In this document: in pieces, positions 4,853 to 54,552 of the stretch | Numbering within the stretch: the stretch's first letter is position 1 | Layout: each line of letters begins with the position of its first letter | Assembly (NCBI GenBank): GCA_021781555.1 | Contig: JAJXWQ010000007.1 | Location: 529 to 64,528 of the forward strand | Origin: a bacterium | GTDB taxonomy: Bacteria; Cyanobacteriota; Sericytochromatia; S15B-MN24; VGJW01 | Length of the DNA: 64,000 nt | Reading direction: 5' to 3' | Program-made: the position numbers and the translations under genes | Notes under the pieces: model-generated | The model's input: the letters and a program-made list of their open reading frames with translations, nothing else | The model's database searches: none | Told to the model about the DNA's origin: nothing

Positions 4853-6193
4853 ATGTCCATCACGGTCAACATAGCGAAGGACAAGCTCAGCGCGACAGTG
4901 CTCCTGACGGACGCCGAGGGGGTCACGGCTCTGGCGATCCGGCAGGCTCTCCAGGCGCGCGGCGTCACCTACGGCTACCTCGAGGACATCATCGAGCGGG
5001 TCGCAACCGCCTCGGCTGCTGGCGAATACGAGGTCGCAGTCGGGGATGCGCCCGTCCAGGGCTCGGACGCTTCGATCGAGTACTTCTTCCGCACCGGCAA
5101 GCCCAATCTGTCCCCGCAGATCCTCGACGACGGGCGCACCGACTACTTCAACCTCGGAGTGGTGCAGAACGTACAACCCGGCGACGTCCTGGCCCGCAAG
5201 ACCCCCGCCGTCCCGGGGATACCAGGCAAGTCGGTTACGGGGGACGACCTGCCGCCCCGGGTGGTCAAGGAGATCAACTTCCGGATCGGGCGCGGGGTCG
5301 AGCTTTCCCCCGACGCTCTCGAGGTGCGCGCCACCGACACCGGCCAGCCGCTCATGACCCGCGGGATCCTCTCGGTCTCGTCGACCTTCGTCGTGTCGGG
5401 AGACGTCGATTTCTCCGTGGGTAATGTCTTTTTCGAGGGCAATGTCGAGGTCCAGGGTACGGTCAGGACCCACTTCAACGTCCGCGCCAAGGGCAATATC
5501 ACCGTGCACGGGGCGGTCGAAGGCGGCATCCTCGAGGCCACGGGCTTCATCATGGTGGTCGGGGGCGTCCGTCAGCGCGCGGCCTTGCGAGCCGAGGGCG
5601 ACATCCAGGTTCGGTTCATGGAGAATTCGATCGCTCGCACGCCTGGCAACCTCTTCGTAAAGGACGACCTCTTGTTCAGCGAGGTCGACGTGGGGGGCAA
5701 GGTCGAGGTCACCGGATCGCTCGTCGGGGGGACCTGCAAGGCGGATGTAGAGGTGAAGGCCGACTGCATCGGCAGCAAGATGGGTACCCCCACACGGGTC
5801 GAACTCAACCCCCTCGAGAAGTGGCTGGAGGTGCTGCACGGCTTCCAGACCCGTCAGGCCGAGGTCAAGGGCAACGTCACGCGAATCGAAGAGGGGCTGA
5901 GCACCCTCGGCACGGCGAGAGAACGTTTCCACGGCCTGCACCCGGACAAGGACGCGCTCTACGATCGTTTGAGCCAGGCCTTGCAGGGATTGCAGCAGGA
6001 ATCCATCGAGCTTGCCGCCAAGGTCATGCAGGCCAAGGCCAAGGTCGAGTCGCTGCCCGAGCCCAAGATCATCGTGCGCGACCGGATCCACCCCGGGGTG
6101 CAGATTCGCCTCAACGAGGCTCGCCTCAACAACGAAGGCGAGCTCCTGGCCCGGGAGCTTTCCGAGAGCTCCGGCAAGATCAGGTTGCAGTAG
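4853..6193 (+). CDS. DUF342/FapA-family protein (flagellar assembly protein A-like, beta-helix)
   Basis: AGGAG 8 nt upstream. Central run of GNV/GDV beta-helix repeats (GDVDFSVGNVFFEGNVEVQGTVRTHFNVRAKGNITVHGAVEGG) and a C-terminal coiled coil, as in FapA/DUF342. Confidence 0.55.
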   Translation: MSITVNIAKDKLSATVLLTDAEGVTALAIRQALQARGVTYGYLEDIIERVATASAAGEYEVAVGDAPVQGSDASIEYFFRTGKPNLSPQILDDGRTDYFNLGVVQNVQPGDVLARKTPAVPGIPGKSVTGDDLPPRVVKEINFRIGRGVELSPDALEVRATDTGQPLMTRGILSVSSTFVVSGDVDFSVGNVFFEGNVEVQGTVRTHFNVRAKGNITVHGAVEGGILEATGFIMVVGGVRQRAALRAEGDIQVRFMENSIARTPGNLFVKDDLLFSEVDVGGKVEVTGSLVGGTCKADVEVKADCIGSKMGTPTRVELNPLEKWLEVLHGFQTRQAEVKGNVTRIEEGLSTLGTARERFHGLHPDKDALYDRLSQALQGLQQESIELAAKVMQAKAKVESLPEPKIIVRDRIHPGVQIRLNEARLNNEGELLARELSESSGKIRLQ

Positions 6194-6345: not shown

Positions 6346-8976
6346 ATGTGGAAGGACCGCCGCCTGCTCCTGGCTGGCACCGTTACCGTTGTAGCCATCG
6401 CCGGAGCTGCCTTTGCCGTCGCCCGCCCCCAGTTCTCGAAGCCCCTCCGGTCGACCGCAGGCAATGTCGCCCCCGTCACCGCGGGCGAATCAACCGGAGG
6501 CCCGGCACTCCACCTCGTCGCATACTCTGGCCCCGAGGCCCCGAACGAACTCGGAATGGTGCCGGTCCTCGAATACCACGACGTAGGCCCCACCGAGGGG
6601 CGCTGGCAGCGGAGCATCGCCAACTTCAAGGGCGACCTCCAGTGGCTCTATGACAACGACTACGTCCCGACGACCACCGCCGACATGATCGCAGGGTTCC
6701 CCGACGTCCCGGCGGGCAAGAAGCCCGTGGTCATAACTTTCGACGACGCTCGCAAGAGCCAGTTCGTCGCGGCAGGCATCGGGCCCGATGGCGAGGCGAT
6801 TCCCACTCCCGACTGTGCGGTCGGGATCATGATGAATTTCGCCAAGACGCACCCGGGCTTCGGTCCCCACGCCAGCTTCTACCTGCTGCCCTCCTTCTTC
6901 GAACAGGACCAGTACGCCGCGGCCAAGCTCAAGTTCCTCGAGCACCACGGCTTTGAACTGGGCAACCACACCTGGTCCCACATGCAGATCGGAAAGGCCT
7001 CTCCCCTGCGCATCCGCAGCGAACTGTCGCGTTTGCAGGCCGCCGTGCAAAAGGAACTGGGCCAGCCTGATTTCCGCACCCTCACCCTGGCTCTGCCTGA
7101 CGGCATCACGCCCAAGTCGCCGGCGCAGATTGCCGCGGCGGTCGGCGGCGGCAAGGCGCCGTATCACATCGAAGCCATGCTGCTGGTGGGCGCCAATCCA
7201 GCCCTTTCCCCCTTCGACAAGCACTTCGCCCCCCTCAAGGTCGCGCGCATCCAGGCGATCGACTCGCAGTGGAAGCTGTGGTTCGGCCGTACGCCCGGGC
7301 ACGTGGGGATCGACCACGAGTCCTTCCACCCGTACGTGAGCGACGGGAACCCGGCGACGATCACCTTCCCCGAGAAGTACGCCGACCGCCTGAACCCGGC
7401 ACTCTCTGGCAAGTACAAGATCCAGGCTTACAAGCCCGGCCAAGCGCCGCTGGTCGCCGTCGCCGGCACGGCCAGCTTGAGCCCCGCCCAGCAACAAGCC
7501 GCAGCCAGCCCCCCGAGCGCCGCCCCGGCCGTCCAGGCAACGGCCAGCGCGAAGCCTGCCGACGCGCAGGCGTCGGGCTCCACCAGCGCCTCCGCGTCTG
7601 TGGCCGCGGCCGGAGTCACGACGATCCCGGGTTTCAGCGCACCGCTGCCGCCGGGTGGCATCTACAAGAACGGCCACATCTACCACAAGGTCAAACCGGG
7701 CCAGGATCTCGACGCCCTGCTTGACCGCTACTTGCCCTTCACGATGGCCTACACCACGCACGACCTGCGCCTGGCCGTGATGAAGGTCAACCACCTCAAG
7801 CATCCGTGGGTCAACCCCGGTCAGACCATCGAGATTCCCGAAGCCCTGTCGGCCCCGCTCCATGCCACGCCGGACGGGTGGCCGGCCACGAAGCCGGTCA
7901 TGGGCATCTACTGCACCTCCACGACCGCCGGGATGGATCGGATCTTCGAGCTGGCGCGCCAGATCCAGGCGGTCGGAGGCAACTCGGTGGTCTTTGACGC
8001 CAAGGACGGTCCCGTCTCGTTCCTGCCTTCCGATCCCAAGGTGCGCGCCATGAGCGAGTGGGATCACACCATCGTCGACCTGCCCAAGCTGGTCTACCTC
8101 CTGCACAAGATGGGAATCCACGTCATCGCCCGCCAGGTACTCTTTCACGATCCGGTTCTGGCCACGCGGCGCCATGACCTCGACGTCCACCGCAAGAGCG
8201 ACCCGAGCGCCGTCTGGCTCGAGCACGGCAAGCTCGACTGGGTCGATGCCAACCAGCCCGAGGTTCAGGAGTACAACCTGCGCCTGGCCAAGGAACTCGC
8301 CGAGAGCGGAGTCGACGAGATCCAGTTCGATTACGTCCGGTTCCCGGCACAGGGCGACACCAAGGACTGCAAGTTCAGCTTCAATCCCAACGTCGAGCCC
8401 AAGTGGCAGGTCCTCGCGAGCTTCCTCAAGCGCGCACACGACGAACTCAAGCCCTACCACGTGCTTCTGGGGATCGACGTCTACGGCGTGATGGCCTGGA
8501 ACAAGATGGTCGACCAGGATGTCACCGGCCAGCGCATCCAGGCTCTGGCAAAGTACGTGGACGTCATCAGCCCGATGCTCTACCCCTCGCACTTCTACGG
8601 CCCGTTCGACGGCTACTCCCATCCGGGCGATCATCCGTACTACTTCGTGAGCCAGGGCGTCGCCCGGGTCCTGTTCGACACCAATCCTTTGCCGGTGGTG
8701 GTCAGACCCTGGGTCCAGGCCTTCGAGTACCTTTCGCCCAACTTCTCTCCCCGGTACGTCGAGCGGGAGTTGCAAGCGGCTCGCGATGCCCACGGAGTCG
8801 GCTGGCTCCTGTGGAACGCAGGCAACAAGTACGACATCGCCACGTCGGGTGTCGCCCGCTGGAACCGGGACCAGTCCCGCATTCCGCCGGTCGCGGTCCG
8901 TATCAAGGGCCTGGAGCCGCCCGCCAAGCACGTTGCGGCCAAGCCTCCAACCAAGACGGCGAGCGCTCGCCGCTGA
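6346..8976 (+). CDS. membrane-anchored polysaccharide deacetylase (CE4/NodB) fused to LysM-like and putative glycoside-hydrolase (DUF4015-like) domains
   Basis: N-terminal TM anchor. NodB motifs (VVITFDDA, GNHTWSH). Ala/Ser/Pro linker. LysM-like segment (YHKVKPGQDLDALLDRYLPF...VNPGQTIEIP). C-terminal TIM-barrel-like GH region with DEIQFDYVRFP. Confidence 0.7.
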   Translation: MWKDRRLLLAGTVTVVAIAGAAFAVARPQFSKPLRSTAGNVAPVTAGESTGGPALHLVAYSGPEAPNELGMVPVLEYHDVGPTEGRWQRSIANFKGDLQWLYDNDYVPTTTADMIAGFPDVPAGKKPVVITFDDARKSQFVAAGIGPDGEAIPTPDCAVGIMMNFAKTHPGFGPHASFYLLPSFFEQDQYAAAKLKFLEHHGFELGNHTWSHMQIGKASPLRIRSELSRLQAAVQKELGQPDFRTLTLALPDGITPKSPAQIAAAVGGGKAPYHIEAMLLVGANPALSPFDKHFAPLKVARIQAIDSQWKLWFGRTPGHVGIDHESFHPYVSDGNPATITFPEKYADRLNPALSGKYKIQAYKPGQAPLVAVAGTASLSPAQQQAAASPPSAAPAVQATASAKPADAQASGSTSASASVAAAGVTTIPGFSAPLPPGGIYKNGHIYHKVKPGQDLDALLDRYLPFTMAYTTHDLRLAVMKVNHLKHPWVNPGQTIEIPEALSAPLHATPDGWPATKPVMGIYCTSTTAGMDRIFELARQIQAVGGNSVVFDAKDGPVSFLPSDPKVRAMSEWDHTIVDLPKLVYLLHKMGIHVIARQVLFHDPVLATRRHDLDVHRKSDPSAVWLEHGKLDWVDANQPEVQEYNLRLAKELAESGVDEIQFDYVRFPAQGDTKDCKFSFNPNVEPKWQVLASFLKRAHDELKPYHVLLGIDVYGVMAWNKMVDQDVTGQRIQALAKYVDVISPMLYPSHFYGPFDGYSHPGDHPYYFVSQGVARVLFDTNPLPVVVRPWVQAFEYLSPNFSPRYVERELQAARDAHGVGWLLWNAGNKYDIATSGVARWNRDQSRIPPVAVRIKGLEPPAKHVAAKPPTKTASARR

Positions 8977-8981
8977 CCCGT

Positions 8982-9016
8982 ACGTGGATGCGCCCGGCCA
9001 GCCGGGCGCTTCCACG
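8982..9016 (+). terminator. GC-rich hairpin downstream of the CE4 gene (no U-tract)
   Basis: acgtggaTgcgcccggc cag ccgggcgcTtccacgt: a 7+8 bp inverted repeat immediately after the stop at 8976. Confidence 0.35.
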
Positions 9017-9055: not shown

Positions 9056-10438
9056 ATGAACGGTCGCTCGGTCTGCGGGTATGATTCCGGGCAGGAGGAA
9101 GGCACGCTGTCACCCGACGTACTGGTCAAGCGTGAGGTTCGCTGCCCGCTATGCGGCAAGGACTTCCGCCACTGGTCGCCCAGGAGCGGCACCTATAGCC
9201 TGATCCGGCGTGACAGCGATTTCTGCCCTCACTACCATGGCACCAATCCCACGCTCTACCAGGTCTACGTCTGCCCCGGCTGCAACTTCGCAGCCTATCG
9301 CCCGGATTTCAGCAACCTCGAGGAGAGCTCGCGCGCTGCCATTGTCTCGGCGCTGGGTCGGGTCAGGCACGAAGGAGCGGTCGATTTCTCGCAGCCAGAG
9401 CGCTCGCTCTTCGCGGCCTTGCGGAGCTTCGAACTCGCGCGGATCTCGGCCGAGGCGCGCAGGTCTCCGCCCGAGGTCCAGGCCAGTCTGATCCACCGTG
9501 CCGCCTGGATTTGCCGTTACGCCGAGGAGTTGGGGCGCGAGGTGCGCTACCTGGGTAGGGCCCGCGATCTTTACCAGGCTGCCTTCGATCGCGGCGTGGC
9601 CAGAGAGCGCCAAACCAACGATCTCGCGGTCGCATATCTGGTGGGCGAGCTCATGCTAAGGACCGGCAGAATTCCGGAGGCGCAGCCCTATCTCCTCCTG
9701 GTAGCCAACGCGAGCGACGCCAAGGCGTCGCTGGTGCGCTCGGCCAAAGACCGGTTGTACGATTCCAAGCAGGCGGCTCAGATCCAGCGCCTCCTGGAGA
9801 CCATCACCCTCTTCCACCCGATCGCCCACCTGGTCGGTCTGATCGCCGCGCACAGCGAGCGTAGATCGATCGGCCCGGGGGGAATCTTGTGTCGCAAGGG
9901 CGAACCCGGGCTCTCGATGTTCGTCGTGGCGGCCGGCGAGGCGGAGGTCTATCTCGGCGATCCGGCCGACTCGGATCCGGTCGCCATCGTGGGCCCAGGC
10001 GAGACCCTGGGCGAGATGAGCTTGTTCCTCGCGGCACCGCGGTCGGCGACGATTTTGGCTCGACCTGCCCGCACGGGACCCATGGCGGTAGCCCTCGAGA
10101 TCATCGAGATTCCCAGGACCGCCTTCCGCAATCTACTCAAGCTCGACGCCGGGGTCGTGGCGGCGATCTCCGAGACGATCGCCCGGCGCCAGCGCGAGAA
10201 CGCCCACTGGCTCGAGGAGCTCGAAATGGCGGCCGACACCCACGGCCAGCTGGAGATCCCGCTGCCCGTCTCGCAGTCTCCCGGCGGCTTGCAGTCGCTC
10301 ATCTTGCCCAAGGTCCGGCGATTCTTCGGCTTGGGCGCGGATCACGAGGCTGCCGAGGCCGTGGCCGACCAGGGGTTGGATGGGGCGGATCCACCATCGC
10401 TCGCGCCCGGCCCGGACGCCGAGGAGCTCGCAACCTGA
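9056..10438 (+). CDS. DUF2225 zinc-ribbon domain fused to a cyclic-nucleotide-binding (CAP-family) domain
   Basis: N-terminus CPLCGKDF...CPHYHGTNP..YVCPGCNFAAY matches the DUF2225 pattern. C-terminus GPGETLGEMSLF...RSATILAR is a cNMP-binding signature. The ORF-track frame opens at TTG 9035; I chose ATG 9056. Start uncertain. Confidence 0.6.
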   Translation: MNGRSVCGYDSGQEEGTLSPDVLVKREVRCPLCGKDFRHWSPRSGTYSLIRRDSDFCPHYHGTNPTLYQVYVCPGCNFAAYRPDFSNLEESSRAAIVSALGRVRHEGAVDFSQPERSLFAALRSFELARISAEARRSPPEVQASLIHRAAWICRYAEELGREVRYLGRARDLYQAAFDRGVARERQTNDLAVAYLVGELMLRTGRIPEAQPYLLLVANASDAKASLVRSAKDRLYDSKQAAQIQRLLETITLFHPIAHLVGLIAAHSERRSIGPGGILCRKGEPGLSMFVVAAGEAEVYLGDPADSDPVAIVGPGETLGEMSLFLAAPRSATILARPARTGPMAVALEIIEIPRTAFRNLLKLDAGVVAAISETIARRQRENAHWLEELEMAADTHGQLEIPLPVSQSPGGLQSLILPKVRRFFGLGADHEAAEAVADQGLDGADPPSLAPGPDAEELAT

Positions 10439-10525: not shown

Positions 10526-12154
10526 ATGGACGCGGCCGGAGAACGAAACGCGATTCGTTCACTCAGGATATTTTCGGATGTCGCCGCTTCGATCGCGCTG
10601 ATCTGTGGCGGCCTCGAGATCGCCGCCTGGATCCTGGACCTCCGGGGCCTCGAAGCCTCGGCCATGGCGCCCCTGGCGCAGGGCCCCGAGGCCGCCACAG
10701 GCCTGCTCCTCGTGGGAGCCGCCCTCATCGTGGCGGGCAGGAACTTCCCGGGCGCCCGGATCGCCTGGCAGCTTTTGGCACTGATGGCGATGACCTTCGG
10801 CACCGCGCTGTCCGTCCGCGGGCTCGGAAGGATCGACGTCGGGCTGGGGCACTTGTTCTCTCCCCATGCGGCCGCCGCGAACTTCACCTCGGCCCGGATG
10901 GCCCTGCCCACGGCCCTGGTGATCACGCTCCTCGGACTGGCCCTGCTGCTCAAGGGCCGGTCGCTGAGCCGAGCGGGGGACGCCCTGGGCACCATGGCCT
11001 TCCTGTTCCTTTACTTCGGGTTCCTCCACCAGGTCCTCAGGATCGAGTTCATGCGGGTGGAACCGCCGTTCAGGCAGGTGCCGCAGGCCTGGCTCCTCTG
11101 GATGCTGCTGAGCCTGGGGGTCACGGCGGTCCGATCGTCGCAATGGCTGGTCGACACCGCCCTGGGGCGAACGCTGACTGGCCTGATGGGGCGCCGCTTC
11201 CTGGCCGCCGTCCTCGTCACCCCGGCACTGTTGGGTTTGCTGTGGATCGTGGCGGTCAGGGCCAACGGCGTGACGCCGATCGAGCGGCTCATGACGGTCG
11301 CCCTCGGCTTCACCGCGCTCATCGTCGGCGTGATCGCCCTTGATGCCCGCCGCCTCGAACAGATCGAGACCGAGCGCGGTCGAGCCGAGGAAGCCTTGGC
11401 CATGAGCCAGGCCGAACTCAAGAAGGCAGCCGAGCTGGCCCAGCTCAAGGATTCCTTCCTCTCGACGGTATCCCACGAGATGCGCACTCCACTCTCGCTC
11501 ATCATGGGCTACGCCGAGCTTCTCGAGGACGTCTATCCCGGCGAAGAGCTCATCGCCGGGATTCAAGAAGGCACCCGAAGGCTCGCCGAGCACATCGAGC
11601 GGATCGTCGAGTACTCCGCCTTGCTCGGCGGTACCTTGCCCCTCTACCAGACGCCAGTAGACATGGCCGAACTGGCCCGCAACGTCGCCGAGGTCGAGCG
11701 GGCGCGGTTCAAGGGCAAGGATCTGACACTCACCGTCGAGGTGAGCGTCAAAACCCCCATCGTGCAGGGAGACTCGCGCCGGCTGACCGAGGTGCTCAAG
11801 GAGCTCCTCGACAACGCGATCAAGGTCACACCGCCCGGGCGCAAGGCCGGGATCCGGGTCGGACCCGAGGGCGACAAGCTGCGAATCGACGTCTGGGACA
11901 GCGGGCCCGGGATCGGCGAGTCCGAGATCGCGCGTCTCTGGGAGGCCTTCGGGCAGCTCGAGGCGGGAGATTCCGCCCGGCGCGGCGGCCTGGGGCTCGG
12001 GCTCCCGATCTCCAGAAAGCTGATCGAACTCCACGGCGGCACGCTCGCCGTGGCGAGCCAGCCCGGCGAGGGGAGCACGTTCACGGTGCTGCTGCCGGCC
12101 TTCGGAACCGAGACTACGGACGCCGGTCCGGAACTCCCGGGTTCGCCTACGTGA
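10526..12154 (+). CDS. membrane sensor histidine kinase
   Basis: Several TM helices, HisKA H-box (SHEMRTPLSLIMGYAELL) and HATPase_c G-boxes (DSGPGIGE, GLGLGLPISRKL). Confidence 0.85.
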   Translation: MDAAGERNAIRSLRIFSDVAASIALICGGLEIAAWILDLRGLEASAMAPLAQGPEAATGLLLVGAALIVAGRNFPGARIAWQLLALMAMTFGTALSVRGLGRIDVGLGHLFSPHAAAANFTSARMALPTALVITLLGLALLLKGRSLSRAGDALGTMAFLFLYFGFLHQVLRIEFMRVEPPFRQVPQAWLLWMLLSLGVTAVRSSQWLVDTALGRTLTGLMGRRFLAAVLVTPALLGLLWIVAVRANGVTPIERLMTVALGFTALIVGVIALDARRLEQIETERGRAEEALAMSQAELKKAAELAQLKDSFLSTVSHEMRTPLSLIMGYAELLEDVYPGEELIAGIQEGTRRLAEHIERIVEYSALLGGTLPLYQTPVDMAELARNVAEVERARFKGKDLTLTVEVSVKTPIVQGDSRRLTEVLKELLDNAIKVTPPGRKAGIRVGPEGDKLRIDVWDSGPGIGESEIARLWEAFGQLEAGDSARRGGLGLGLPISRKLIELHGGTLAVASQPGEGSTFTVLLPAFGTETTDAGPELPGSPT

Positions 12155-13484
12155 ACATGGCCGCAGCGCTCGTCGTCGACCCGAGCATCCGCAACTGGCG
12201 GACGGTCTCGTCGAAGGGCGTGTTGTCCCGGACGTCCTGCTTGAGATAGCCCTTGATCTGGTCCCACATCGAGATGGCACGGTCAAAGGCGGGGTTGCTC
12301 CCCCTGACGTAAGCCCCGACGTTGAGCAGATCCTGGACCTCCTTGTAATCGGCGATCATCTGGAAGACGGCCTGGCGTGCCTGCTTGTGTTCCTTGGTAG
12401 CCAGGATATCCAGCAGACGGGAAACGCTCTGTAGCACGTCGATCGCCGGGAAGATGCCCTGCGCCGCGATCGATCGCAGCATGACGATGTGGCCGTCGAG
12501 GATGCCGCGGACGGTGTCGGCGATCGGCTCGTCCATGTCGCCGCCATCGACCAGCACCGTGTAGATCCCGGTGATCGAACCTTTGTCACTGGTACCCGCC
12601 CGCTCGAGGAGCTTGGGGATGAGCGAGAAAACCGACGGCGTGTACCCCTTCTGCGCGGGCGGTTCGCCGATCGCCAGGCCGATCTCGCGCATCGCCATCG
12701 CAAAACGCGTCATCGAGTCCATCATCAAGAAGACCTTGTTGCCCTGATCGCGGAAGTACTCGGCGATGGAGGTAGCTACCAGCGGCGCCTTGAACCGCAT
12801 CAAGCTGGAGGTATCGCTCGTCGCAACCACCACGACCGAACGTCTCAAGCCTTCCTCGCCCAGGGAGTACTCGAGAAATTCCCGGACCTCGCGCCCGCGC
12901 TCTCCGACCAGGCAGAGCACGGATAGATCCGCCTTGGCCTGGCGGGCGATCTGGCCGAGCAAGGTGCTCTTGCCCACTCCCGATCCGGCGAAGATCCCGA
13001 TACGCTGGCCCTCGCCCAGGGTCAAAAAGCCGTCCATCACGCGCACGCCGGTCGGGAGAACCGTGTCGATGAGCCGCCGTGTCATCGAGTTGGGGGGAGC
13101 GTTCATCTGCGGCGTCGTCGTCTCGTACAGGAGCGGACCCTTGCCGTCGATGGGGTTGCCGAGACCGTCCAGCACGCGGCCGAGGAGCTTGGGCCCGACC
13201 TTGACGCTGACCATCCGCCCGGTCGCCACGACCTCGCAGCCCGCCCCGATGCCCTCCATCTCGGAAAGAGGCATCAGCATGACGCGCCGCGGCTTGAAGC
13301 CGACGACCTCGCACGGAAAGACCAGCTTGCGATCCTGCGAGTAGATGTGGCAAAGCTCTCCGTAACGCACGCCTTGCAACTGCGCCTCGATGACCAGGCC
13401 CACGAGCTGCACGACGATTCCCCGGGCTCGCACCGGCTCGGTATCCCGCAACGCGAGGGCGTAGGGCTCGAGAGAGATGTTCAC
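12147..13484 (-). CDS. fliI: FliI/YscN-family type III secretion ATPase
   Basis: Walker A GSGVGKST and a T3SS-ATPase N-domain. GTG start with AAGAGG upstream. Stop overlaps the convergent HK stop (CTACGTGA). Confidence 0.9.
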   Translation of the reverse strand: MNISLEPYALALRDTEPVRARGIVVQLVGLVIEAQLQGVRYGELCHIYSQDRKLVFPCEVVGFKPRRVMLMPLSEMEGIGAGCEVVATGRMVSVKVGPKLLGRVLDGLGNPIDGKGPLLYETTTPQMNAPPNSMTRRLIDTVLPTGVRVMDGFLTLGEGQRIGIFAGSGVGKSTLLGQIARQAKADLSVLCLVGERGREVREFLEYSLGEEGLRRSVVVVATSDTSSLMRFKAPLVATSIAEYFRDQGNKVFLMMDSMTRFAMAMREIGLAIGEPPAQKGYTPSVFSLIPKLLERAGTSDKGSITGIYTVLVDGGDMDEPIADTVRGILDGHIVMLRSIAAQGIFPAIDVLQSVSRLLDILATKEHKQARQAVFQMIADYKEVQDLLNVGAYVRGSNPAFDRAISMWDQIKGYLKQDVRDNTPFDETVRQLRMLGSTTSAAAMFT

Positions 13485-13514: not shown

Positions 13515-14900
13515 CTACTGGTTGAGGTCCTCGAAGGCCTGCGACTCGGCATCGTCGACCTCGGAGAGCTCCCGCTGCACGTTCTGGAAGACCTCCTGCA
13601 AGACCGAGAGCTGGGTCTTGATGGTCGCATCCACCGTGCCCGATCCGGTCTCGATGAAGACGCCGCCCCGCTGGATCTTGTTGGACGCCTGGAACTCGAG
13701 ATGCTTGACCTGAGCCAGCATGTCCCGGAATCGATCCTCCTGGGCCTGAACCTGGGGCAGATCCTCGGTATTGACCCGCACCACGACGCGCTCCAGGTCC
13801 GTGACCCGGGTCAGCGCCTCGTCGAGGACCGACAGCACGATCTCGGGCTTGGCCGAGATCTCGTCGCAGACGATCTTTTCGGCCACGCTCATGGCGAGCT
13901 GGATGAGTTTCCTCGAGTTCTCCCGCGCTGCCTGTGGATAAGCTAGCCGAGCGCGATTGAGGGTCTCGATCGCCTCTTCGATGATCTTGGCGCCTTCCTC
14001 GTCGGCCTGCGCCCGGCCCTCGGTGTAGCCAGCCGCTCGGGCCGCCTCCACCATCTGTTCGTAGCGCTCGGACCGGGAGCGCTCGAAGTCCTCGAAGGCC
14101 TGGGCGATCTGGTTCTGCGCATCGGCCCGGGCCTCGGCTGCCGCGATCTGGGCCTCGCCGACGATCCGCTCCGCCTCGAGACGAGCCTCGGCGAGCAGCC
14201 GCTCGCGTTCGGCCAGCAGCCGCTTGCCGGCATTCTCCTTGAGCTCGAAGCCGTCGAGCAGCGCGGCGATCTGCTCCTCGGCGCTGGCGAGCTCGCGCCA
14301 ACGCGCCCGCGAGGCGGCCCGCGCCGCCTCGAACTCGGCCGCCGCCGCCGCCTGCTGCTCCAGAGTCGGCACCAGCGCATCGACCGCACTGCCGAGCTGC
14401 TGGGGATCCGCGCCGAGAGCCTCGGACAGACGTTGGGTCGCAGCCTCGAGCAGAGCCGAGAAGGTACCCTCGGGATCGGGGGCCTGATTGGCGGCCTCCT
14501 CGGCTCCGGCCTGGGCAGCGGCTTCGGCGGCGGTCAGGATCTCCTGCCTGGCGCCCTCGAACCCCGCCAACCAATCCCCATCCGCCTCGAGGGCCGCGTC
14601 GAGTCCGGCCGCGGCTCCCCCCGGCGCCGGCTCTGCAACGCCAGCCCCGGCGCTCGCTACGGGATCGACGGGACGAGCCGGGGCCTCGGGTCCTGGCGAC
14701 TCCGGCTGCAGCGGCACGATGTCGAGGTCCGATTCGGCCATCGGCACGACCCGCTCGGCCCTGCGCAGCCCGCTCTCGGGGGCGTCGACTCGCCGGCGCA
14801 CACGGCCCGGACGGCCTTCGCCCTCGTCGGCGATAACCTGGTCGCCGGCGACCACGACCGACCCGCCCTGGTCGACCTTGCTACCCTTTATCAGCGCCAC
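13515..14900 (-). CDS. fliH: FliH/YscL-family ATPase regulator with a ~200-aa Ala/Glu/Pro-rich N-terminal extension
   Basis: C-terminal 260 aa match FliH (coiled coil, then ...RGGVFIETGSGTVDATIKTQL). 30-bp gap to fliI. Annotated start is a GTG without a clear SD. Start uncertain. Confidence 0.65.
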   Translation of the reverse strand: MALIKGSKVDQGGSVVVAGDQVIADEGEGRPGRVRRRVDAPESGLRRAERVVPMAESDLDIVPLQPESPGPEAPARPVDPVASAGAGVAEPAPGGAAAGLDAALEADGDWLAGFEGARQEILTAAEAAAQAGAEEAANQAPDPEGTFSALLEAATQRLSEALGADPQQLGSAVDALVPTLEQQAAAAAEFEAARAASRARWRELASAEEQIAALLDGFELKENAGKRLLAERERLLAEARLEAERIVGEAQIAAAEARADAQNQIAQAFEDFERSRSERYEQMVEAARAAGYTEGRAQADEEGAKIIEEAIETLNRARLAYPQAARENSRKLIQLAMSVAEKIVCDEISAKPEIVLSVLDEALTRVTDLERVVVRVNTEDLPQVQAQEDRFRDMLAQVKHLEFQASNKIQRGGVFIETGSGTVDATIKTQLSVLQEVFQNVQRELSEVDDAESQAFEDLNQ

Positions 14901-15354: not shown

Positions 15355-17253
15355 TCAGTCCAGGCCCACCGAGTAGCCGAAGTTCACGCTGGCGTTGAAG
15401 GGGAAGAGCGTCATCGTGGACGTCAGCGACCAGGAGAGGCAAGCGGCGCGGTAGGTCAGCCGCAGCGTGGCATCGTTGAAGTTTAGCCGGAGGGCGCCCT
15501 GCGGACGGTAGAAGTTGGCGCCCACGTCGGTGTACCAGTGGCGAGTCCACGCGTAAGAGGCGCTGCCGAAGACCCGATCCCCGCTTGGCGCCTGATCGAA
15601 GTAGAACGGCGAGCGGCCCAGCAGCTGGTCGGTCTCCGCCCCGAAATCCGTGGACCATCGTGCCGCCCAGCGCTGTATGTTGTTGAGCCCGACGACGCCG
15701 CTCACCTGGTACGCGGGCTTCCACGACCTCGCGCCCAAAGCTGGCGGCTCCAGGTATTCCGTCGCCGTACCCCAGGCGTAACCGTCGGTCTCCCAGAAGG
15801 GCTCGGGTCGCCAGGCGGGGGCCGCCACTGCGACGTGAACGGATCCAGCAACGGCACTGGCATGCGGCGGCTCGTCGAACGGCAACCACTCGAGCTGCGG
15901 CAAGGGCGAGAGTTCCTGGAAGTAGCCCACCCGCGCCGTCGGGTTGATCATCAAGGGCCCAAGGCCCAGATTACCGAGATTGAGGTCCAGATCGCCCAGT
16001 CGGTTGACGTTCTGGCCGTTGATATCCGATCGGTAGCCGGCGCCGAGCGAAAGACTCCTGCCGCCTGCCAGAGCCAGCAGGGCGCCACCATTGGCGCGCG
16101 GGCCGTAGGTTCCGCCCTGAAACGGCGTCTGGTAGGTCGCGTCACCCGATAGCGAGATGTTCCCGACCTTGGCGGTCCCCTGGGTGCCGAAGAGGATGCC
16201 CCGCCCCTGCGTGACACGGAAGGGAATCGTGCCCTGGATGTACTTGCCCAGAGCGAAAGCGCCGGCACCGGCCGCGAAGGCCCCCTCGTACGGGTCGTAC
16301 CCGGCCTGGGCACCGAGGGTGTGCGACCCGCGCCGATGGGAGATCTGGTCCTTGAGGCTCGTATTGATCTCGGGAATCGAAGCCAGGGTCCAGCCCGAGA
16401 CGTGCAGGGCCACGTCGTGGGCTTCAAAGATCTGCCGATCGCCGAACGGGTGCCACTTCAGCTTCTTGCTGGAAAGGAAGTATCCGGGGTCGTCAGCCAT
16501 GCACGGACTGAAAACCGTGTTCCGGGCCAAAGCATAGGAAGGCGAGAGATACAGGAAGCTGCCGCTGGCGCGCCCGCGGTGGGCCGCTCGGCCCGACCAG
16601 TGCCAGGCCTGGGCCTCCTGGTGGAGGAGGTCGAAATCGAAGCGGTCGGCGCGGAGGCGGTAACCTTTGATCGTGAACCGCACGTGGTTGTCCGCGTGGC
16701 CCCGCCGGGCCGCCGCATCGAAGTAGAGCCGCCCGGCCGACAGGGAGTAGGATCCGTACCACGCCTGCACGTGGCCCGTGGCGATGAGGATGGACGCATC
16801 GGTTCTTGCCTCGATATGGTCGGCCCAGATCACCAGGGTCTGGCCTCCCGGCTCGTTCACGGTCACCGAGGCCGAGGCTTTTCCGGGCCGGGCGGGTGAG
16901 GACTCCGCCTGTGCCGGTCCGAACTCGTCGGGCAGCAGCGTCGGCGGCAAATAGGGATTGGGCGAGGGGCCGACCTGGGGTTCGGGCAGGGCATCGGGAT
17001 CCGGCAGCGCCGGCCCGGCGAGAGGATCCCCGATGCCCATAGGGGCGAGGACCGGGCTCTCGAAACAGCACGCCGCGGGAGCGAGCGCAGGAGACGGCGA
17101 GGGCGACGGCGAAGGCAAGGGGGACGGCGAGGGCGAGGGAAAAGGCTCGGCCGAAGCCAGTAGATCGGGGATCGGGTTGCCCAGATGATCGCCCGTGATG
17201 GGCAGGTAAGCGGCGGCAAGATGGATCGCCGCGGCGCAAAGCAGGGCGATCAT
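15355..17253 (-). CDS. OstA-domain (LptD-like) outer-membrane beta-barrel protein with an (SP)n linker
   Basis: Signal peptide, SPSPSPLPSPSPSPSP linker, OstA-like N-domain (TLVIWADHIEARTDASILIATGHVQAWYGSYSLSAGRLYFD) and a Gly/aromatic-rich C-terminal half consistent with a beta-barrel. Start overlaps the DUF58 stop (ATGA). Confidence 0.5.
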   Translation of the reverse strand: MIALLCAAAIHLAAAYLPITGDHLGNPIPDLLASAEPFPSPSPSPLPSPSPSPSPALAPAACCFESPVLAPMGIGDPLAGPALPDPDALPEPQVGPSPNPYLPPTLLPDEFGPAQAESSPARPGKASASVTVNEPGGQTLVIWADHIEARTDASILIATGHVQAWYGSYSLSAGRLYFDAAARRGHADNHVRFTIKGYRLRADRFDFDLLHQEAQAWHWSGRAAHRGRASGSFLYLSPSYALARNTVFSPCMADDPGYFLSSKKLKWHPFGDRQIFEAHDVALHVSGWTLASIPEINTSLKDQISHRRGSHTLGAQAGYDPYEGAFAAGAGAFALGKYIQGTIPFRVTQGRGILFGTQGTAKVGNISLSGDATYQTPFQGGTYGPRANGGALLALAGGRSLSLGAGYRSDINGQNVNRLGDLDLNLGNLGLGPLMINPTARVGYFQELSPLPQLEWLPFDEPPHASAVAGSVHVAVAAPAWRPEPFWETDGYAWGTATEYLEPPALGARSWKPAYQVSGVVGLNNIQRWAARWSTDFGAETDQLLGRSPFYFDQAPSGDRVFGSASYAWTRHWYTDVGANFYRPQGALRLNFNDATLRLTYRAACLSWSLTSTMTLFPFNASVNFGYSVGLD

Positions 17254-18395
17254 CGCACTTCGGGCCGGTGGGCCCGGAGCCTGCGCTTGCCCCTGCGCTT
17301 GAAGAAGGCGAAAACCGGACGCCAGAAGGACTCGCCCGTCCGCAGCTCGATCTCGTCGATCCCCATGGCGGCAAAGGCCTGCTGACGCGTGCGGCGGCGG
17401 GTCTCGGCGATCTGGCGGTAGCGTTGCTGCACGTCGGGATCCGAGGTGTCGACGACGGCGCTGACACCCGTCTCGGGGTCCATGAAACTAACCCGTCCCA
17501 GCGCAGGCAAGACCTCCTCCATGCGATCCGTCAGCGTCACCGCGATCACGTCGTGCCGCGCCAGTCGCCGGAGCGATTCGAGATCGGCCGCCAGGAAGTC
17601 CGAGCAGACGAAGATCGTGGCAGGCCGGCGCACCAGGCGCGCCAGCGCGATCACGGCACCCTGGAACGCAGCCGGGAAGGGTCCGGTTGCCGCGGACGTG
17701 CCGACCTCCAGGTCGAGGGCTCCCACGGTCGGGCTCGTGGGTCCGACGTCGAGGAGATCGTGGACCAGGCGCAGGACATGTGCGCGCCCTTTGCGCGGCG
17801 GGACGAAACGGACGGTCTTCGAACCGAACAGGAAAAGCCCGACGCGATCGTGGTTGGCCATGGCCGAAAGCGCGATGGCCATCGCGAAGCGACCGGCGAG
17901 ATCCCGCTTGAGCTCGGTGCCGGCCGTCGCAAAATCCAGGCTGCGCGAGCCATCCACGGCGAGGATGACGGTCAGCTCGCGCTCCTCGACGAATTTCTTG
18001 ACGAAGAGCCGATCCATCCGCGCCGTCACGTTCCAGTCGATCGTGCGCGGATCATCGCCCTCTTGATACTCCCGGACCTCGTCGAAGATCATCCCCCGTC
18101 CCTTGAACACACTCTGGTATTCTCCGGCCAGGATGCTGCGAACCAGGCGATCGCTCTGGATCTCGAGCCGGCGGATCTTCCTGGCCATCCGGCTCGTCGC
18201 CTCGGGGACCGGAGCGGGCCTCGCGATCGCCCGACGCCAGCGGTTCCATCCGAGCACCAGGAAGCCCGTGGATGGCCACGGGATGCGCAGCGGCCGAAAC
18301 GACCTCCCGGTCGCTGCCAGGCGCTCCCGGGGCGATCGCCTGAAACCGTCTCGATGGCCCGAAGAGGGCCCGCGCTTGAGCGAACGGCCAGACAA
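17250..18395 (-). CDS. DUF58 protein (MoxR partner, vWA-like fold)
   Basis: Conserved DUF58 core (YQEGDDPRTIDWNVTARMDRLFVKKF...ILAVDGSRSL). Start lies 3 nt after the MoxR stop. Confidence 0.75.
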   Translation of the reverse strand: MSGRSLKRGPSSGHRDGFRRSPRERLAATGRSFRPLRIPWPSTGFLVLGWNRWRRAIARPAPVPEATSRMARKIRRLEIQSDRLVRSILAGEYQSVFKGRGMIFDEVREYQEGDDPRTIDWNVTARMDRLFVKKFVEERELTVILAVDGSRSLDFATAGTELKRDLAGRFAMAIALSAMANHDRVGLFLFGSKTVRFVPPRKGRAHVLRLVHDLLDVGPTSPTVGALDLEVGTSAATGPFPAAFQGAVIALARLVRRPATIFVCSDFLAADLESLRRLARHDVIAVTLTDRMEEVLPALGRVSFMDPETGVSAVVDTSDPDVQQRYRQIAETRRRTRQQAFAAMGIDEIELRTGESFWRPVFAFFKRRGKRRLRAHRPEVR

Positions 18396-18397
18396 GC

Positions 18398-19387
18398 CTA
18401 CGGCACCCGTAGTGACAGCAAACGCCTCACCACGAAATCCACGGACACCTCCTCGGCCTCGGCCTCGTACGTCAGCAGGACGCGGTGCCGCAAGACGTCC
18501 AGGGCGATGGCCTTGACGTCGTCAGGGAGCACGTACGCTCGCTTGCGCAAGAAGGCATGGGCCTTGGCGGCCTGGATGAGGTAGATGCTCGCCCGCGGCG
18601 AGGCCCCGTACGCGATGAGGGGGGCAAGATCCTCCATGCCGGCTTCCTTGGGCTGCCGCGTCGCGGCAACAAGATCCACCACGTAGCGCTTGATCTTGTC
18701 TGATACCAGGATGTCGGCCGCGAGGTTACGGGCCTCGAGAACCAGCTCCAGGGTACCGAGCTTGGCGAGCTGCACCTCCCGACGCACCGTCATACGATCG
18801 AGGATCTCGAGCTCCTCGCTCTTGCTGGGATAGGTCACCTTGACCTTGAACATGAAGCGATCGAGCTGGGCTTCGGGCAAAGAGTAGACCCCTTCGTTAT
18901 CCATGGGGTTCATCGTGGCCATCACCAGGAAGGGCTCGGGCAAGGCGAGGGTCTCGCCGCCGATGGTGACCTGCCGCTCCTGCATGGCCTCGAGGAGAGC
19001 GCTCTGGACCTTTGCCGGGGCACGGTTGACCTCGTCCGCCAGGACCAAATTGCCGAAGATCGGCCCCCTCTTGGTCTGGAAACGGCCCTTCTTCGCATCG
19101 AAGATGGAGGTGCCGAGGATGTCTGCCGGCAAGAGGTCGGGGGTGAACTGGATGCGGCTGAACTCGGCCTGCAGCACCTGGGCCAAGGTGCTGATCGAGA
19201 GGGTCTTGGCCAGGCCCGGGACGCCCTCGAGCAGGATATGGCCGTCCGCCAGCAAACCGATGAGCAGGCGATCGATCAGCGCCCCCTGGCCGACGATCAC
19301 GCGCTTGATCTCGGCGGTGATCTGACCGAAGCGCTCGGCAGCGGCCCGCACGCGTTCATTGGCCTCGAGGATGGTGTTGTCGATCAC
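18398..19387 (-). CDS. MoxR-family AAA+ ATPase
   Basis: Walker A GVPGLAKT, Walker B LLADEVNRA and the MoxR-specific C-terminus. Confidence 0.9.
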   Translation of the reverse strand: MIDNTILEANERVRAAAERFGQITAEIKRVIVGQGALIDRLLIGLLADGHILLEGVPGLAKTLSISTLAQVLQAEFSRIQFTPDLLPADILGTSIFDAKKGRFQTKRGPIFGNLVLADEVNRAPAKVQSALLEAMQERQVTIGGETLALPEPFLVMATMNPMDNEGVYSLPEAQLDRFMFKVKVTYPSKSEELEILDRMTVRREVQLAKLGTLELVLEARNLAADILVSDKIKRYVVDLVAATRQPKEAGMEDLAPLIAYGASPRASIYLIQAAKAHAFLRKRAYVLPDDVKAIALDVLRHRVLLTYEAEAEEVSVDFVVRRLLSLRVP

Positions 19388-38077: not shown

Positions 38078-38153
38078 GGCTAGGCCTTTTGCAGTTTGAA
38101 CGGGGCCCGTTTGACTCATCGGGCCCGATCCATTCAAACCGGGAGCACTCTAG
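38078..38153 (-). repeat. MITE/REP-like element, short (76 bp) inverted-orientation form
   Basis: ctaggccttttgcagtttgaacggggcccgtttgactcatcgggcccgatccattcaaaccgggagcactctag. It lacks the internal 32-bp ggttgcgcagcgaagcgaccgcgcagagggac segment. Confidence 0.85.
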
Positions 38154-38893
38154 GCCTTGCGCCGATCGGATCCTTCCATCGACATGACCCACTCGGTGTA
38201 CCTGGGGGTGTCGGTGGGATCGTCCCGCAGCGCCATCCGGAACGTGATGCGATCCTTGATGGGCCGGAAGGACACGACCTCCACGATCTCCTGGCAGTAA
38301 CCCTCGCGGCGGAGATCCTCGACGGCCTTCTGGGGGCTGACCATGACGACCTTGTCGCCCGAGAGCGGATCGAAGGCGACCAGCGTCCCACCCTCGGCAT
38401 CGCCGCGGGGTCCCTCGATGGCGAGCAGCCGGCCATCCGGCGACCAGCCGACGCGCTTCCAGACCAGATCGGGGCCATCCGACGGGACGGCGATCCGCTT
38501 GCCGCTCTTGCGTTCGAACACGGTGAGCGTGTTGGGCGCGCCCTTGATGGAGCTGTCCAGGACACCGACATAGCGGCGATCGGCGCTCATCCGGACTTCC
38601 CCATGCTGCGCGGTGCGCTGGGCCAGGCCCTGGGCGGGCTCGCCCGCCGAGGCCGGCAGGAGATCGGGCACCCAGATGCGCTCGGTCGGGCGCAGAAAAT
38701 TTGGATTCATCGCGGGGTTGCGACGCATGAGCTCAGCCACGGGCACACCCGAAGCTCGGGCGATCGCACCAAGGGTATCGCCCGGTCGCACCAGGTAAGC
38801 GAAGGCCGGACCACGACCGGGGCGGTCGTTGGGAGATGGGCCCGCCGGGATGGGCAGCCTTGCAGGACGCGCAACGCCCGGCTGGCGCAACAT
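38150..38893 (-). CDS. LysM-domain protein
   Basis: LysM (YLVRPGDTLGAIARASGVPVAELMRRNP). ORF trimmed to an internal ATG. C-terminal half possibly beta-propeller-like. No clear signal peptide. Confidence 0.5.
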   Translation of the reverse strand: MLRQPGVARPARLPIPAGPSPNDRPGRGPAFAYLVRPGDTLGAIARASGVPVAELMRRNPAMNPNFLRPTERIWVPDLLPASAGEPAQGLAQRTAQHGEVRMSADRRYVGVLDSSIKGAPNTLTVFERKSGKRIAVPSDGPDLVWKRVGWSPDGRLLAIEGPRGDAEGGTLVAFDPLSGDKVVMVSPQKAVEDLRREGYCQEIVEVVSFRPIKDRITFRMALRDDPTDTPRYTEWVMSMEGSDRRKA

Positions 38894-39097
38894 TGCAGTG
38901 GACACGAGACCTTCCTCCTCCGTGGGCTCGAGGCAACCTTCGCGGCCGTTCGCCTCGCCCGACGAGCCATGACGGCTCTCCAGTTCTATCGTGCTCGGGC
39001 GCCGAAGACTGACGCGCTCGCACGTTAAGCTTGGAGGAAGAAACGCCCCAAAGGGCTTAACCGAGCCTTCCCGCTCCCGGTGCGCTACACTGTCGTC

Positions 39098-39352
39098 ATG
39101 ACCACAGAGAATGGCCTGATGCGCCTGTACCAGTTCGAGTCCTGCCCGTACTGCCACCAGGTGCGGCAGAAGCTAAGCGAGCTCCTGCTCACCTACGTCG
39201 CGATCAACGTTCCGCAGGATCGCTCCAGGCGGCAGGAGGTCATCGCGGTATCCGGACAGCCGACCGTTCCGGTACTGGTCGACGGAGACGTCGTGATCGC
39301 GGACGAGAACGACATCATCGCGCATCTCGAGAAGAAGTACAGCAAGAAATAG
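39098..39352 (+). CDS. glutaredoxin-like protein (CPYC)
   Basis: YQFESCPYCHQVRQKL...GQPTVPVLVDGD thioredoxin-fold pattern. Start ambiguous (39080, 39098 or 39119). Confidence 0.7.
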   Translation: MTTENGLMRLYQFESCPYCHQVRQKLSELLLTYVAINVPQDRSRRQEVIAVSGQPTVPVLVDGDVVIADENDIIAHLEKKYSKK

Positions 39353-52726: not shown

Positions 52727-52875
52727 CGCGGTTTCGCCGCGCAGGGACGGGCTGAAGGAGTCAAACCGGGACCGGTTGCGCAGCGCAGGGACGGGCTGAA
52801 GGAGTCAAACCGGGACCGGTTGCGCAGCGCAGGGACCGCGCAGTGGGATCCGTTCGGGCGGCAAAAAATCTAAAA
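52727..52875 (+). repeat. variant repeat related to the MITE/REP family, with an internal 47-bp tandem duplication
   Basis: gcgcagggacgggctgaaggagtcaaaccgggaccggttgcgcagc x2; shares the gagtcaaacSggg.ccggttgcgcagcg core. Lies between the convergent gyrB and MTase stops. Confidence 0.7.
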
Positions 52876-53964: not shown

Positions 53965-53968
53965 CAGG

Positions 53969-54514: not shown

Positions 54515-54552
54515 CGTTCCCGCCCCTTCGAAAAAGGCCTGCCGGGCCGCCC

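Follow-up and report, generated by a model that had tools for sequence, protein, structure and literature searches.

Gene and domain organization

The subject of this analysis is a gene at positions 6346..8976 (+ strand, stop codon included) of a 64,000-nucleotide stretch of contig JAJXWQ010000007.1, hereafter the window, from a bacterium of the class Sericytochromatia. The gene encodes an 876-residue protein in which a predicted export signal is followed by a CE4 deacetylase domain, a LysM-like module and a DUF4015 barrel. The open reading frame (ORF) begins with ATG and runs for 876 codons to a single stop, with none internal, and its GC content at the three codon positions (0.65/0.46/0.86) is in line with that of the other genes of the window (64–71% GC). 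An exact copy of the protein was found on four contigs of independent assemblies, the two listed being from one ENA and one Logan assembly, and orthologs with 34–68% identity keep the same layout. With its uninterrupted ORF, the gene is considered intact. A fusion or internal frameshift artefact, which a preliminary description of this locus had raised as a concern, is ruled out by the identical copies and by the orthologs of equal layout. The gene itself is not new, since the family has already been catalogued and annotated as “polysaccharide deacetylase family protein” or “putative glycoside hydrolase”. In the AlphaFold2 model of the full protein, which was calculated with 26 homologs as input and has a predicted local distance difference test score (pLDDT) of 83, a helix (residues 2–20) is followed by a disordered segment (20–61), the CE4 domain (62–365), a second disordered segment (371–420), a small domain (438–497) and the barrel (518–850). 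Pfam, AlphaFold2 and the orthologs confirm the earlier proposal that the three domains are combined in one anchored protein. The N-terminal anchor of that proposal is real, and so is the insert, which is LysM-like in fold and has a LysM match below the Pfam threshold. The protein clearly belongs to both CE4 (NodB2 class) and DUF4015, and its LysM-like module is divergent.

Based on the AlphaFold2 helix and the N-termini of orthologs, residues 1–26 (MWKDRRLLLAGTVTVVAIAGAAFAVA, 6346..6423, +) are assigned as a signal or anchor segment. This N-terminus lacks a lipobox Cys and contains a possible signal-peptidase I site between AFA and VA; many orthologs show LAGC or SLGC lipoboxes. A twin-arginine-like KDRRLLL motif is also present, and most close orthologs carry a counterpart (RRLL[VI]AG). 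Together, the signal/anchor helix and the ortholog lipoboxes suggest that the protein is exported and tethered to the envelope. Linker 1 (residues 27–61, 6424..6528, +) is disordered, with pLDDT values <50 at residues 20–61 (~40 residues). Linker 2 (residues 366–435, 7441..7650, +) is rich in Ala, Ser, Pro and Gln, and its disorder is evident from its sequence and from pLDDT values <50 at residues 371–420. Both linkers are predicted to be flexible. In the model and by its sequence, the C-terminal tail (residues 851–876, 8896..8973, +) is basic and disordered.

The CE4 domain, of the NodB2 de-N-acetylase type, spans residues 62–365 (6529..7440, +) and is assigned from Pfam, motif invariance and profile alignments. 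In the Pfam scan, PF01522 (Polysacc_deac_1) matches residues 122–267 with an E-value of 3.4e-10 and 40.4 bits, compared to a cutoff of 23.1. The motifs occur in the order MT5 (VPVLEYH, residues 72–78, with H78 at 6577–6579), MT1 (TFDD, residues 131–134, with D133/D134 at 6742–6747), MT2 (HTWSH, residues 208–212, with H208 at 6967–6969 and H212 at 6979–6981) and an MT3-like ALPDG (residues 249–253), all on the + strand. A remote invariant Arg, R301 (7246–7248, +), was located in the alignment of homologs, and H78, D133, D134, H208, H212 and R301 are unchanged across 90 homologs. The global MAFFT alignments mixed both domain orders and aligned the CE4 domain only, and barrel residues were not taken from them; it was their failure outside CE4 that brought to light the reversed fusions described below. 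The MT5-MT1-MT2-MT3 order is that of the NodB2 class, in which MT5 (consensus VLMYH) comes first, MT3 is AYPYG and the Arg is supplied from elsewhere, as in PgaB, IcaB, BpsB and Bc0361/Ba0330 (PMC10967932). In a profile search of the PDB, the window motifs align with PplD (6dq3) and with 6go1. In an hhalign comparison with PgaB of E. coli MG1655, H78 pairs with H55 and D133/D134 with D114/D115 (probability 86%, E 5e-6). Because the full catalytic set is conserved and the equivalent His and Asp of PplD are required for activity, as shown by mutagenesis (PMC8807736), we infer that the CE4 domain is a functional metal-dependent de-N-acetylase. In such an enzyme, H78 would act as the catalytic acid/base. 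The metal would be bound by D134, H208 and H212, and the water by D133, which R301 would keep in position.

Between the two catalytic domains, residues 436–500 (7651..7845, +) form a divergent LysM module with an insert between its two helices, an assignment based on a sub-threshold match to PF01476, the fold and colinearity. No LysM match was returned by the Pfam scan of the whole protein. When residues 446–497 are scanned alone, they match the full PF01476 profile (1–43; E 0.0068) with 16.8 bits, below the 20.9-bit cutoff. In the AlphaFold2 model, residues 438–497 adopt a small β-β-α-α-β domain. The segment is colinear with the above-threshold Pfam LysM of LysM-DUF4015 homologs, and a local hidden Markov model built from it matches 88 of 120 stand-alone DUF4015 homologs.

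The C-terminal domain (residues 515–850, 7888..8895, +) is a DUF4015 (β/α)8 barrel, as established by Pfam, AlphaFold2, Foldseek and conservation. PF13200 matches residues 520–829 over the entire profile (1–313 of 313; E 2.6e-78, 263.7 bits, cutoff 27), and the domain modelled alone has a pLDDT of 92.9 and a predicted template modelling (TM) score of 0.92. No match to PF14883 (GHL13) at E ≤ 0.1 and none to GHL10 (PF02638) was detected in the protein; a paralog (P0018) has only a weak overlap with GHL10 (E 0.0048). By sequence, the sole solved relative of the barrel is the partial structure of Cthe_0052 (4s1a, E 3e-34). A Foldseek search of the PDB with the isolated barrel also returned 4s1a first, followed by the GH153 domains of PgaB/BpsB (E about 1e-10, TM 0.61–0.64, 12–13% identity) and, later, by GH20, GH36, SleL, GH13 and GH31 structures. 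With the full model, PgaB 42–655 (4f9j) is the top match across both domains (E 2.5e-14), and Cwp19 (E 1.2e-11, TM 0.65), 4s1a and the PgaB C-terminal domain are next. The fold and its glycosidase neighbours bear out the earlier description of this domain as glycoside-hydrolase-like. Strand β4 spans residues 658–662, with the invariant pair D662-Y663 at its end, and the invariant R596 is found on β3. Based on its position and invariance only, D662 (8329–8331, +; motif DEIQFDYVRFP, end of β4) is the putative catalytic Asp. The catalytic Asp of GH153 (Bordetella D474, E. coli D466) is likewise located where β4 ends (PMC5933820), and the key residues proposed for Cwp19 are D196-Y197 at the end of β4, plus R132 (PMC5765458). 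By analogy, D662 is proposed as the key carboxylate of the window barrel. Further invariant residues are D551, D602, D634, R665, D711, H749, R787, W789, W823 and N824.

Architectures, neighbours and candidate substrate

To place the protein among its relatives, 1.84 billion cluster representatives were searched with DUF4015 alone, which yielded 3,239 clusters (50% identity) with E ≤ 1e-3, of which 845 reach E ≤ 1e-30. Architectures were counted in the 120 clusters closest to the full protein and, separately, in the 120 closest to the barrel alone. In the first set, 88 clusters have the reversed order DUF4015→CE4 (Gaiellaceae, Solirubrobacteraceae and Armatimonadota, often with BiPBP_C/Ig domains) and 32 have the order CE4→DUF4015, either with the LysM-like module in between (27) or without it (5). 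In the second set, LysM or LysM-like modules precede DUF4015 without CE4 in 88 clusters, many with above-threshold Pfam LysM, and the remaining 32 contain DUF4015 only. Among GTDB species genomes, the full CE4-LysM-DUF4015 fusion is found in Candidatus Peribacteria and in Sericytochromatia, the non-photosynthetic sister group of Cyanobacteria. The LysM-DUF4015 arrangement is found in Terriglobales, Spirochaetota (including Leptospira biflexa), Thermodesulfobacteriota, Fibrobacteraceae and others. The closest named relatives (~55% identity) are from metagenome-assembled genomes of Candidatus Sericytochromatia, a group in which several paralogs of the enzyme exist. In Candidatus Peribacteria, which belong to the candidate phyla radiation (CPR) and have reduced genomes, the CE4-(LysM)-DUF4015 fusion (L074, L086, L088) shares 35–37% identity over residues 58–838. 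Replicon matches to DUF4015 were also seen in Streptomyces, Fusobacterium and Paenibacillus, in records that are unannotated at those loci.

The two catalytic domains also occur as separate genes, which overlap or are closely spaced within an operon in Burkholderia savannae, Ralstonia wenshanensis and Cupriavidus metallidurans and are adjacent on the same strand in Peptoclostridium acidaminophilum. The Burkholderiaceae operon comprises three genes in the order CE4 → DUF4015 → β-lactamase-NamZ (L121 4743–9116, L122 4731–9122 and L123 4821–9259, on Burkholderia, Ralstonia and Cupriavidus replicons) and sits on chromids or plasmids. Its last gene encodes a 780–796-residue protein with Beta-lactamase, NamZ_N and NamZ_C domains, the last two being exo-β-N-acetylmuramidase domains. 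The Cupriavidus operon adjoins flgB and an EAL-domain gene. Because CE4 and DUF4015 are fused in both orders and are operonic neighbours in unrelated phyla, there is strong evidence from sequence that they work together. The combination had been described as uncommon, a view that does not hold: more than 140 90%-identity clusters carry both domains, in both orders, in addition to the adjacent separate genes.

In the window, cysS, a mini-RNase III gene, a SpoU methyltransferase gene and a FapA (DUF342) gene (4853..6193, +) precede the enzyme gene. It is followed by a gene for a DUF2225 (zinc-ribbon) protein with a cyclic nucleotide monophosphate (cNMP)-binding domain (9056..10438, +), a histidine kinase gene and then, on the opposite strand, a FliI/FliH-like pair. 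An ortholog of the DUF2225-cNMP gene lies directly downstream in six other Sericytochromatia loci (L003, L005, L007, L011, L015 and L016; 44–56% identity), whose outer flanks differ, and FapA lies directly upstream in three of them (L003, with two copies, L005 and L015). The FapA, enzyme and DUF2225-cNMP genes (4853–6193, 6346–8976 and 9056–10438, +) are therefore treated as a module, after which a Peptidase_C11 (clostripain) gene often comes next. Neither partner is found beside a paralog group or beside homologs of other phyla. Both partners are predicted to be cytoplasmic. That they are tied to an exported glycan enzyme through locally regulated wall remodelling is speculation. A metagenome scan with the DUF2225-cNMP neighbour was uninformative on linkage because only generic cNMP-binding domains were returned.

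Domain identities, folds, catalytic-motif conservation and the fusion and neighbour patterns are direct results, and from them we infer export, activities, substrate and coupling. At a probability of roughly one in two, the protein would be an exported, envelope-tethered bifunctional enzyme that acts on a cell-wall N-acetylhexosamine (HexNAc) glycan, most likely peptidoglycan. LysM is a classic peptidoglycan/chitin-binding module, and LysM directly upstream of DUF4015 is the commonest architecture among the closest barrel relatives. At an acidobacterial locus, the divergent neighbour of the DUF4015 gene encodes a protein of the β-lactamase-NamZ type, and genes for a YkuD L,D-transpeptidase and a peptide-binding protein are also present. 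Another DUF4015 homolog adjoins bactofilin, with a SPOR-NlpC/P60 gene nearby, and actinobacterial versions bear PBP1C-type BiPBP_C domains. DUF4015 has also been reported as a fusion with YkyA/PdcF, which tethers peptidoglycan deacetylases and serves as their cofactor (PMC12700454). The operons in which CE4, DUF4015 and NamZ are separate genes suggest a pathway of wall-glycan trimming and turnover. Because LysM-DUF4015 recurs, NamZ operons exist and Cwp19 is structurally near, peptidoglycan or another wall glycan of N-acetylmuramic acid (MurNAc) and N-acetylglucosamine (GlcNAc) is favoured. The preliminary description had left the choice between an exopolysaccharide and a peptidoglycan-linked glycan; of the two, peptidoglycan is favoured by the context.

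In this enzyme, docking on glycan strands that contain GlcNAc would fall to the divergent LysM, and removal of N-acetyl groups to the metal-dependent CE4 domain of the NodB2 class. The DUF4015 barrel would cut the glycan backbone in a pocket of invariant Asp, Arg and aromatic residues, where D662 would be the key carboxylate. By analogy with PgaB only, which requires glucosamine (GlcN) in its substrate (PMC5933820), cleavage may depend on de-N-acetylated sites made by the neighbouring CE4 domain. In a much bolder extension, DUF4015 (>3,000 50%-identity clusters) would be a widespread new family of peptidoglycan-strand hydrolases that obligatorily work with a NodB2 de-N-acetylase, deacetylation would license cleavage, and the FapA and DUF2225/cNMP module would place the Sericytochromatia fusion under the control of cyclic nucleotides, so that the wall is remodelled locally, for instance where a flagellum or other polar machine sits. 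This extension is a long shot.

The same activities could instead belong to a scavenging, catabolic enzyme, which would break down chitin or peptidoglycan of external origin (necromass or prey) for nutrition and would not remodel the cell's own wall. The Burkholderiaceae CE4-DUF4015-NamZ operon does resemble a degradative pathway, and is carried on chromids or plasmids; the peptide-binding protein at the acidobacterial locus is of the ABC-transporter type; and chitin-degrading systems include some that combine LysM, CE4 and a glycosidase. However, the membrane or lipoprotein tether argues for a cell-bound role. The window gene has a solitary, housekeeping-like setting beside cysS, rlmB and FapA, with no transporter or sugar-catabolism genes there, and Sericytochromatia contain several paralogs and conserved synteny with cytoplasmic regulators. 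A scavenging role is thus judged very improbable.

Several observations weigh against peptidoglycan as the substrate. The best structural match, PgaB, is an exopolysaccharide enzyme, and the LysM assignment falls under Pfam’s threshold; the LysM may also be a mere wall anchor while the enzyme acts on another glycan. Linkage to NamZ was seen in other phyla, and a NamZ domain was not detected in any ORF scanned in the window. Although most families of peptidoglycan hydrolases are represented among phage lysins, DUF4015 is essentially absent from phages, with no PHROG family and two weak unannotated matches in phage genomes. In literature searches, which were nearly empty for the family, no biochemical report on any DUF4015 protein was found. 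A neighbour census of 30 GTDB loci, made with crude ORF calling, showed no peptidoglycan enrichment, ClpX-like AAA_2 and MlaE/F families being dominant, and it did not separate a peptidoglycan role from an exopolysaccharide role. Finally, the substrate of the NodB2 deacetylases characterized to date is poly-N-acetylglucosamine (PNAG) or the linkage unit of a wall polysaccharide, and not the peptidoglycan strand (PMC10967932, PMC8807736).

In the same census, the MlaE permease (6 neighbour ORFs) and an ABC ATPase (5) are among the commonest families. Judging by ORF size, these genes seem to lie upstream of LysM-DUF4015 in spirochaete loci, of which the sample includes L046, L067, L068, L071, L073, L075 and L081; the assignment to individual loci is unconfirmed. 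Such neighbours would suggest a lineage-specific tie to outer-membrane lipid maintenance.

The likeness to PgaB raises the alternative of a PgaB/PelA-like processor of a secreted, partly de-N-acetylated exopolysaccharide that is PNAG-, Pel- or galactosaminogalactan-like. Here, CE4 action would give the polymer a positive charge, the DUF4015 barrel would trim it during export or disperse the matrix, and the LysM would be a wall tether only. In agreement with such a role, PgaB 42–655 leads the Foldseek matches over both domains, GH153 domains are the closest characterized neighbours of the barrel, many orthologs are predicted lipoproteins, as PgaB is, and FapA and the cNMP-binding neighbour could fit a motility/matrix switch. 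The NodB2 class is also tied mainly to PNAG deacetylases (PMC10967932), and a deacetylase-hydrolase pair is what characterizes PgaB and PelA (PMC5933820, PMC12022489, PMC6307706). However, PgaB, IcaB, PelA and PssB are all encoded within synthase operons, and the scanned ORFs, which include most large ORFs of the 64-kb window, yielded no GT2/PgaC-like synthase, no PgaA-like porin and no further exopolysaccharide gene. The pgaC/pgaD-like synthase that had been suggested as a check is thus missing from these ORFs; no synthase was seen beside the homologs in related loci read individually, nor does one figure in the 25 neighbour families that were most frequent at 30 further loci. Moreover, the score of the protein against the PgaB equivalog model TIGR03938 is 16.5 bits compared to a cutoff of 321.9, with the match confined to residues 74–140. 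In hhalign and BLASTP comparisons with E. coli PgaB, nothing was detected in the C-terminal half, and only the N-terminal CE4 segment is detectably homologous. NamZ operons indicate MurNAc-containing substrates, and no LysM is known to bind β-1,6-GlcNAc or α-1,4-N-acetylgalactosamine polymers. Taken together, an exopolysaccharide processor is considered unlikely.

The CE4 domain considered by itself directs attention to a different wall component, namely a secondary wall polymer attached to peptidoglycan, or the GlcNAc unit that links the two. Much as in PplD, the CE4 domain would de-N-acetylate the linker or polymer, and DUF4015 would then set the polymer free or trim it. Of the matches limited to CE4, PplD (6dq3) is the best by both structure and profile, and the MT5-first order is shared (PMC8807736); Cwp19 is encoded in the PSII anionic-polymer locus (PMC5765458). 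A further point against peptidoglycan is one actinobacterial DUF4015-CE4 locus that suggests a wall-polysaccharide context, the gene lying between those for an epimerase, a PMT_2-like GT-C glycosyltransferase, and LytR_C and Wzy_C proteins. Only a single such context was seen, however, and the NamZ association and LysM fusion are explained more simply by peptidoglycan itself. Sericytochromatia are probably diderms without known wall teichoic-like polymers. A secondary wall polymer is therefore regarded as a distinctly unlikely target, and peptidoglycan remains the favoured candidate.

Deacetylase-glycosidase enzymes such as PgaB and PelA are central to biofilm matrix biology and are under development as anti-biofilm agents. 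The window locus represents a parallel, uncharacterized lineage in which a PgaB-type NodB2 deacetylase is paired with another barrel family, DUF4015, which spans thousands of clusters in groups such as Acidobacteriota, Spirochaetota (including Leptospira), Burkholderiaceae, Actinomycetota, CPR and non-photosynthetic Cyanobacteriota. Both fusion orders, the unfused operons, the LysM module and the NamZ linkage provide a concrete and testable functional hypothesis for DUF4015. If peptidoglycan is the substrate, a new glycan-cleaving family would be added to cell-wall turnover and NodB2 deacetylases would be extended beyond PNAG; if it is not, the gene would mark an unknown HexNAc polymer.

Further features of the window

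In the interval after the enzyme gene, a GC-rich perfect 8-bp hairpin, GCGCCCGG-CCAG-CCGGGCGC (8990..9009, +), was read from the sequence 14 nt past the stop codon. The hairpin has no T-tract and was not called by a simple terminator scan; it may be a partial terminator or a stabilizer between the enzyme gene and its downstream partner. Further downstream, a FliI-like type III secretion system ATPase gene and a FliH-like gene are found outside a flagellar operon (12147–13484, 13515–14900 and 15355–19387, all −), adjoining genes for a 632-residue protein without a Pfam match, a DUF58/VWA protein and a MoxR-type AAA ATPase. This arrangement is repeated in a relative with 55% identity (L005), and the FliH/FliI pair may be used outside the flagellum. 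Upstream, the cysS, mini-RNase III and SpoU/RlmB-type methyltransferase genes of this Cyanobacteriota-related genome (1601–4657, +) have an order that recalls the cysS-mrnC-rlmB genes of Bacillota. Other wall-binding proteins are encoded at 38150–39157 (−), 41984–43342 (−) and 55304–55930 (+); two have a canonical LysM, in one case together with CarboxypepD_reg, and one has a SPOR domain. Finally, at 52870–54619 (−), a gene for an N6/N4 DNA methyltransferase (PF01555) precedes a 216-residue ORF without a Pfam match, and the two could be a restriction-modification pair.

Comparison with known systems

The closest solved relative of the barrel, Cthe_0052 of Ruminiclostridium thermocellum (4s1a), belongs to the same DUF4015 family (33% identity, TM 0.86 over the solved part). 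It differs in that the structure contains only ~190–230 barrel residues, CE4 and LysM are absent and the protein is uncharacterized. Experiments have shown that Cwp19 (GHL10), from Clostridioides difficile, is a lytic transglycosylase of peptidoglycan (PMC6016235). Its Asp-Tyr pair where β4 ends and its conserved β3 Arg compare with D662-Y663 and R596 (PMC5765458). In contrast to the window protein, Cwp19 belongs to the PF02638 family, is anchored by CWB2 repeats instead of LysM and has no deacetylase domain. SleL, a spore-cortex N-acetylglucosaminidase with LysM and GH18 domains, and other LysM autolysins share the placement of LysM directly before a TIM-barrel glycosidase, and SleL is among the Foldseek matches described above. 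SleL differs in having a GH18 catalytic motif, which is absent from the window protein, and in lacking a deacetylase domain.

For the deacetylase half, the nearest system is PplD of Streptococcus pyogenes, a de-N-acetylase of the wall-polysaccharide linkage GlcNAc. The MT5-first order and the catalytic set of His, Asp-Asp, HxxxH and remote Arg are common to PplD and the window CE4 domain (PMC8807736). PplD is also a membrane-anchored extracellular enzyme, but it is a single-domain protein without a glycosidase or LysM. Both catalytic domains are present in the Burkholderiaceae CE4 → DUF4015 → β-lactamase-NamZ operon, and its CE4 is of the NodB2 type (‘LILVYH...’). In this system, however, the domains are unfused, there is no LysM (a CarboxypepD_reg domain is found in Cupriavidus) and the extra protein with exo-N-acetylmuramidase domains is encoded.

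The most extensive likeness is to PgaB/BpsB, in which CE4 and GH153 domains combine PNAG de-N-acetylase and β-1,6 glycosidase activities. The preliminary description held that the window protein mirrors PgaB, and this stands for the fold, the domain order and the NodB2 motifs; it does not extend to PgaB family membership, the C-terminal sequence or a pga operon. Among four defining features that were tested, the NodB2-type CE4 is present, whereas the equivalog score, the GH153 sequence and the synthase/porin operon all fail, and because three of the four fail, the window protein is not a member of the PgaB family. The barrel is PF13200, not GH153/GHL13, a LysM module is found between the two domains, no pgaACD operon was found in the scanned ORFs and the context points to MurNAc/peptidoglycan. 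At the same time, both systems have a deacetylase followed by a (β/α)8 barrel, the NodB2 motif order is common to both, GH153 is the nearest characterized fold for the window barrel (TM about 0.62) and the position of D662 matches that of the β4-end catalytic Asp (D466/D474; PMC5933820). PgaB is also a lipoprotein, as many orthologs of the window protein are predicted to be. The window protein therefore works like PgaB in architecture, and, by analogy, it probably does so in logic as well, with a deacetylase coupled to a glycosidase.

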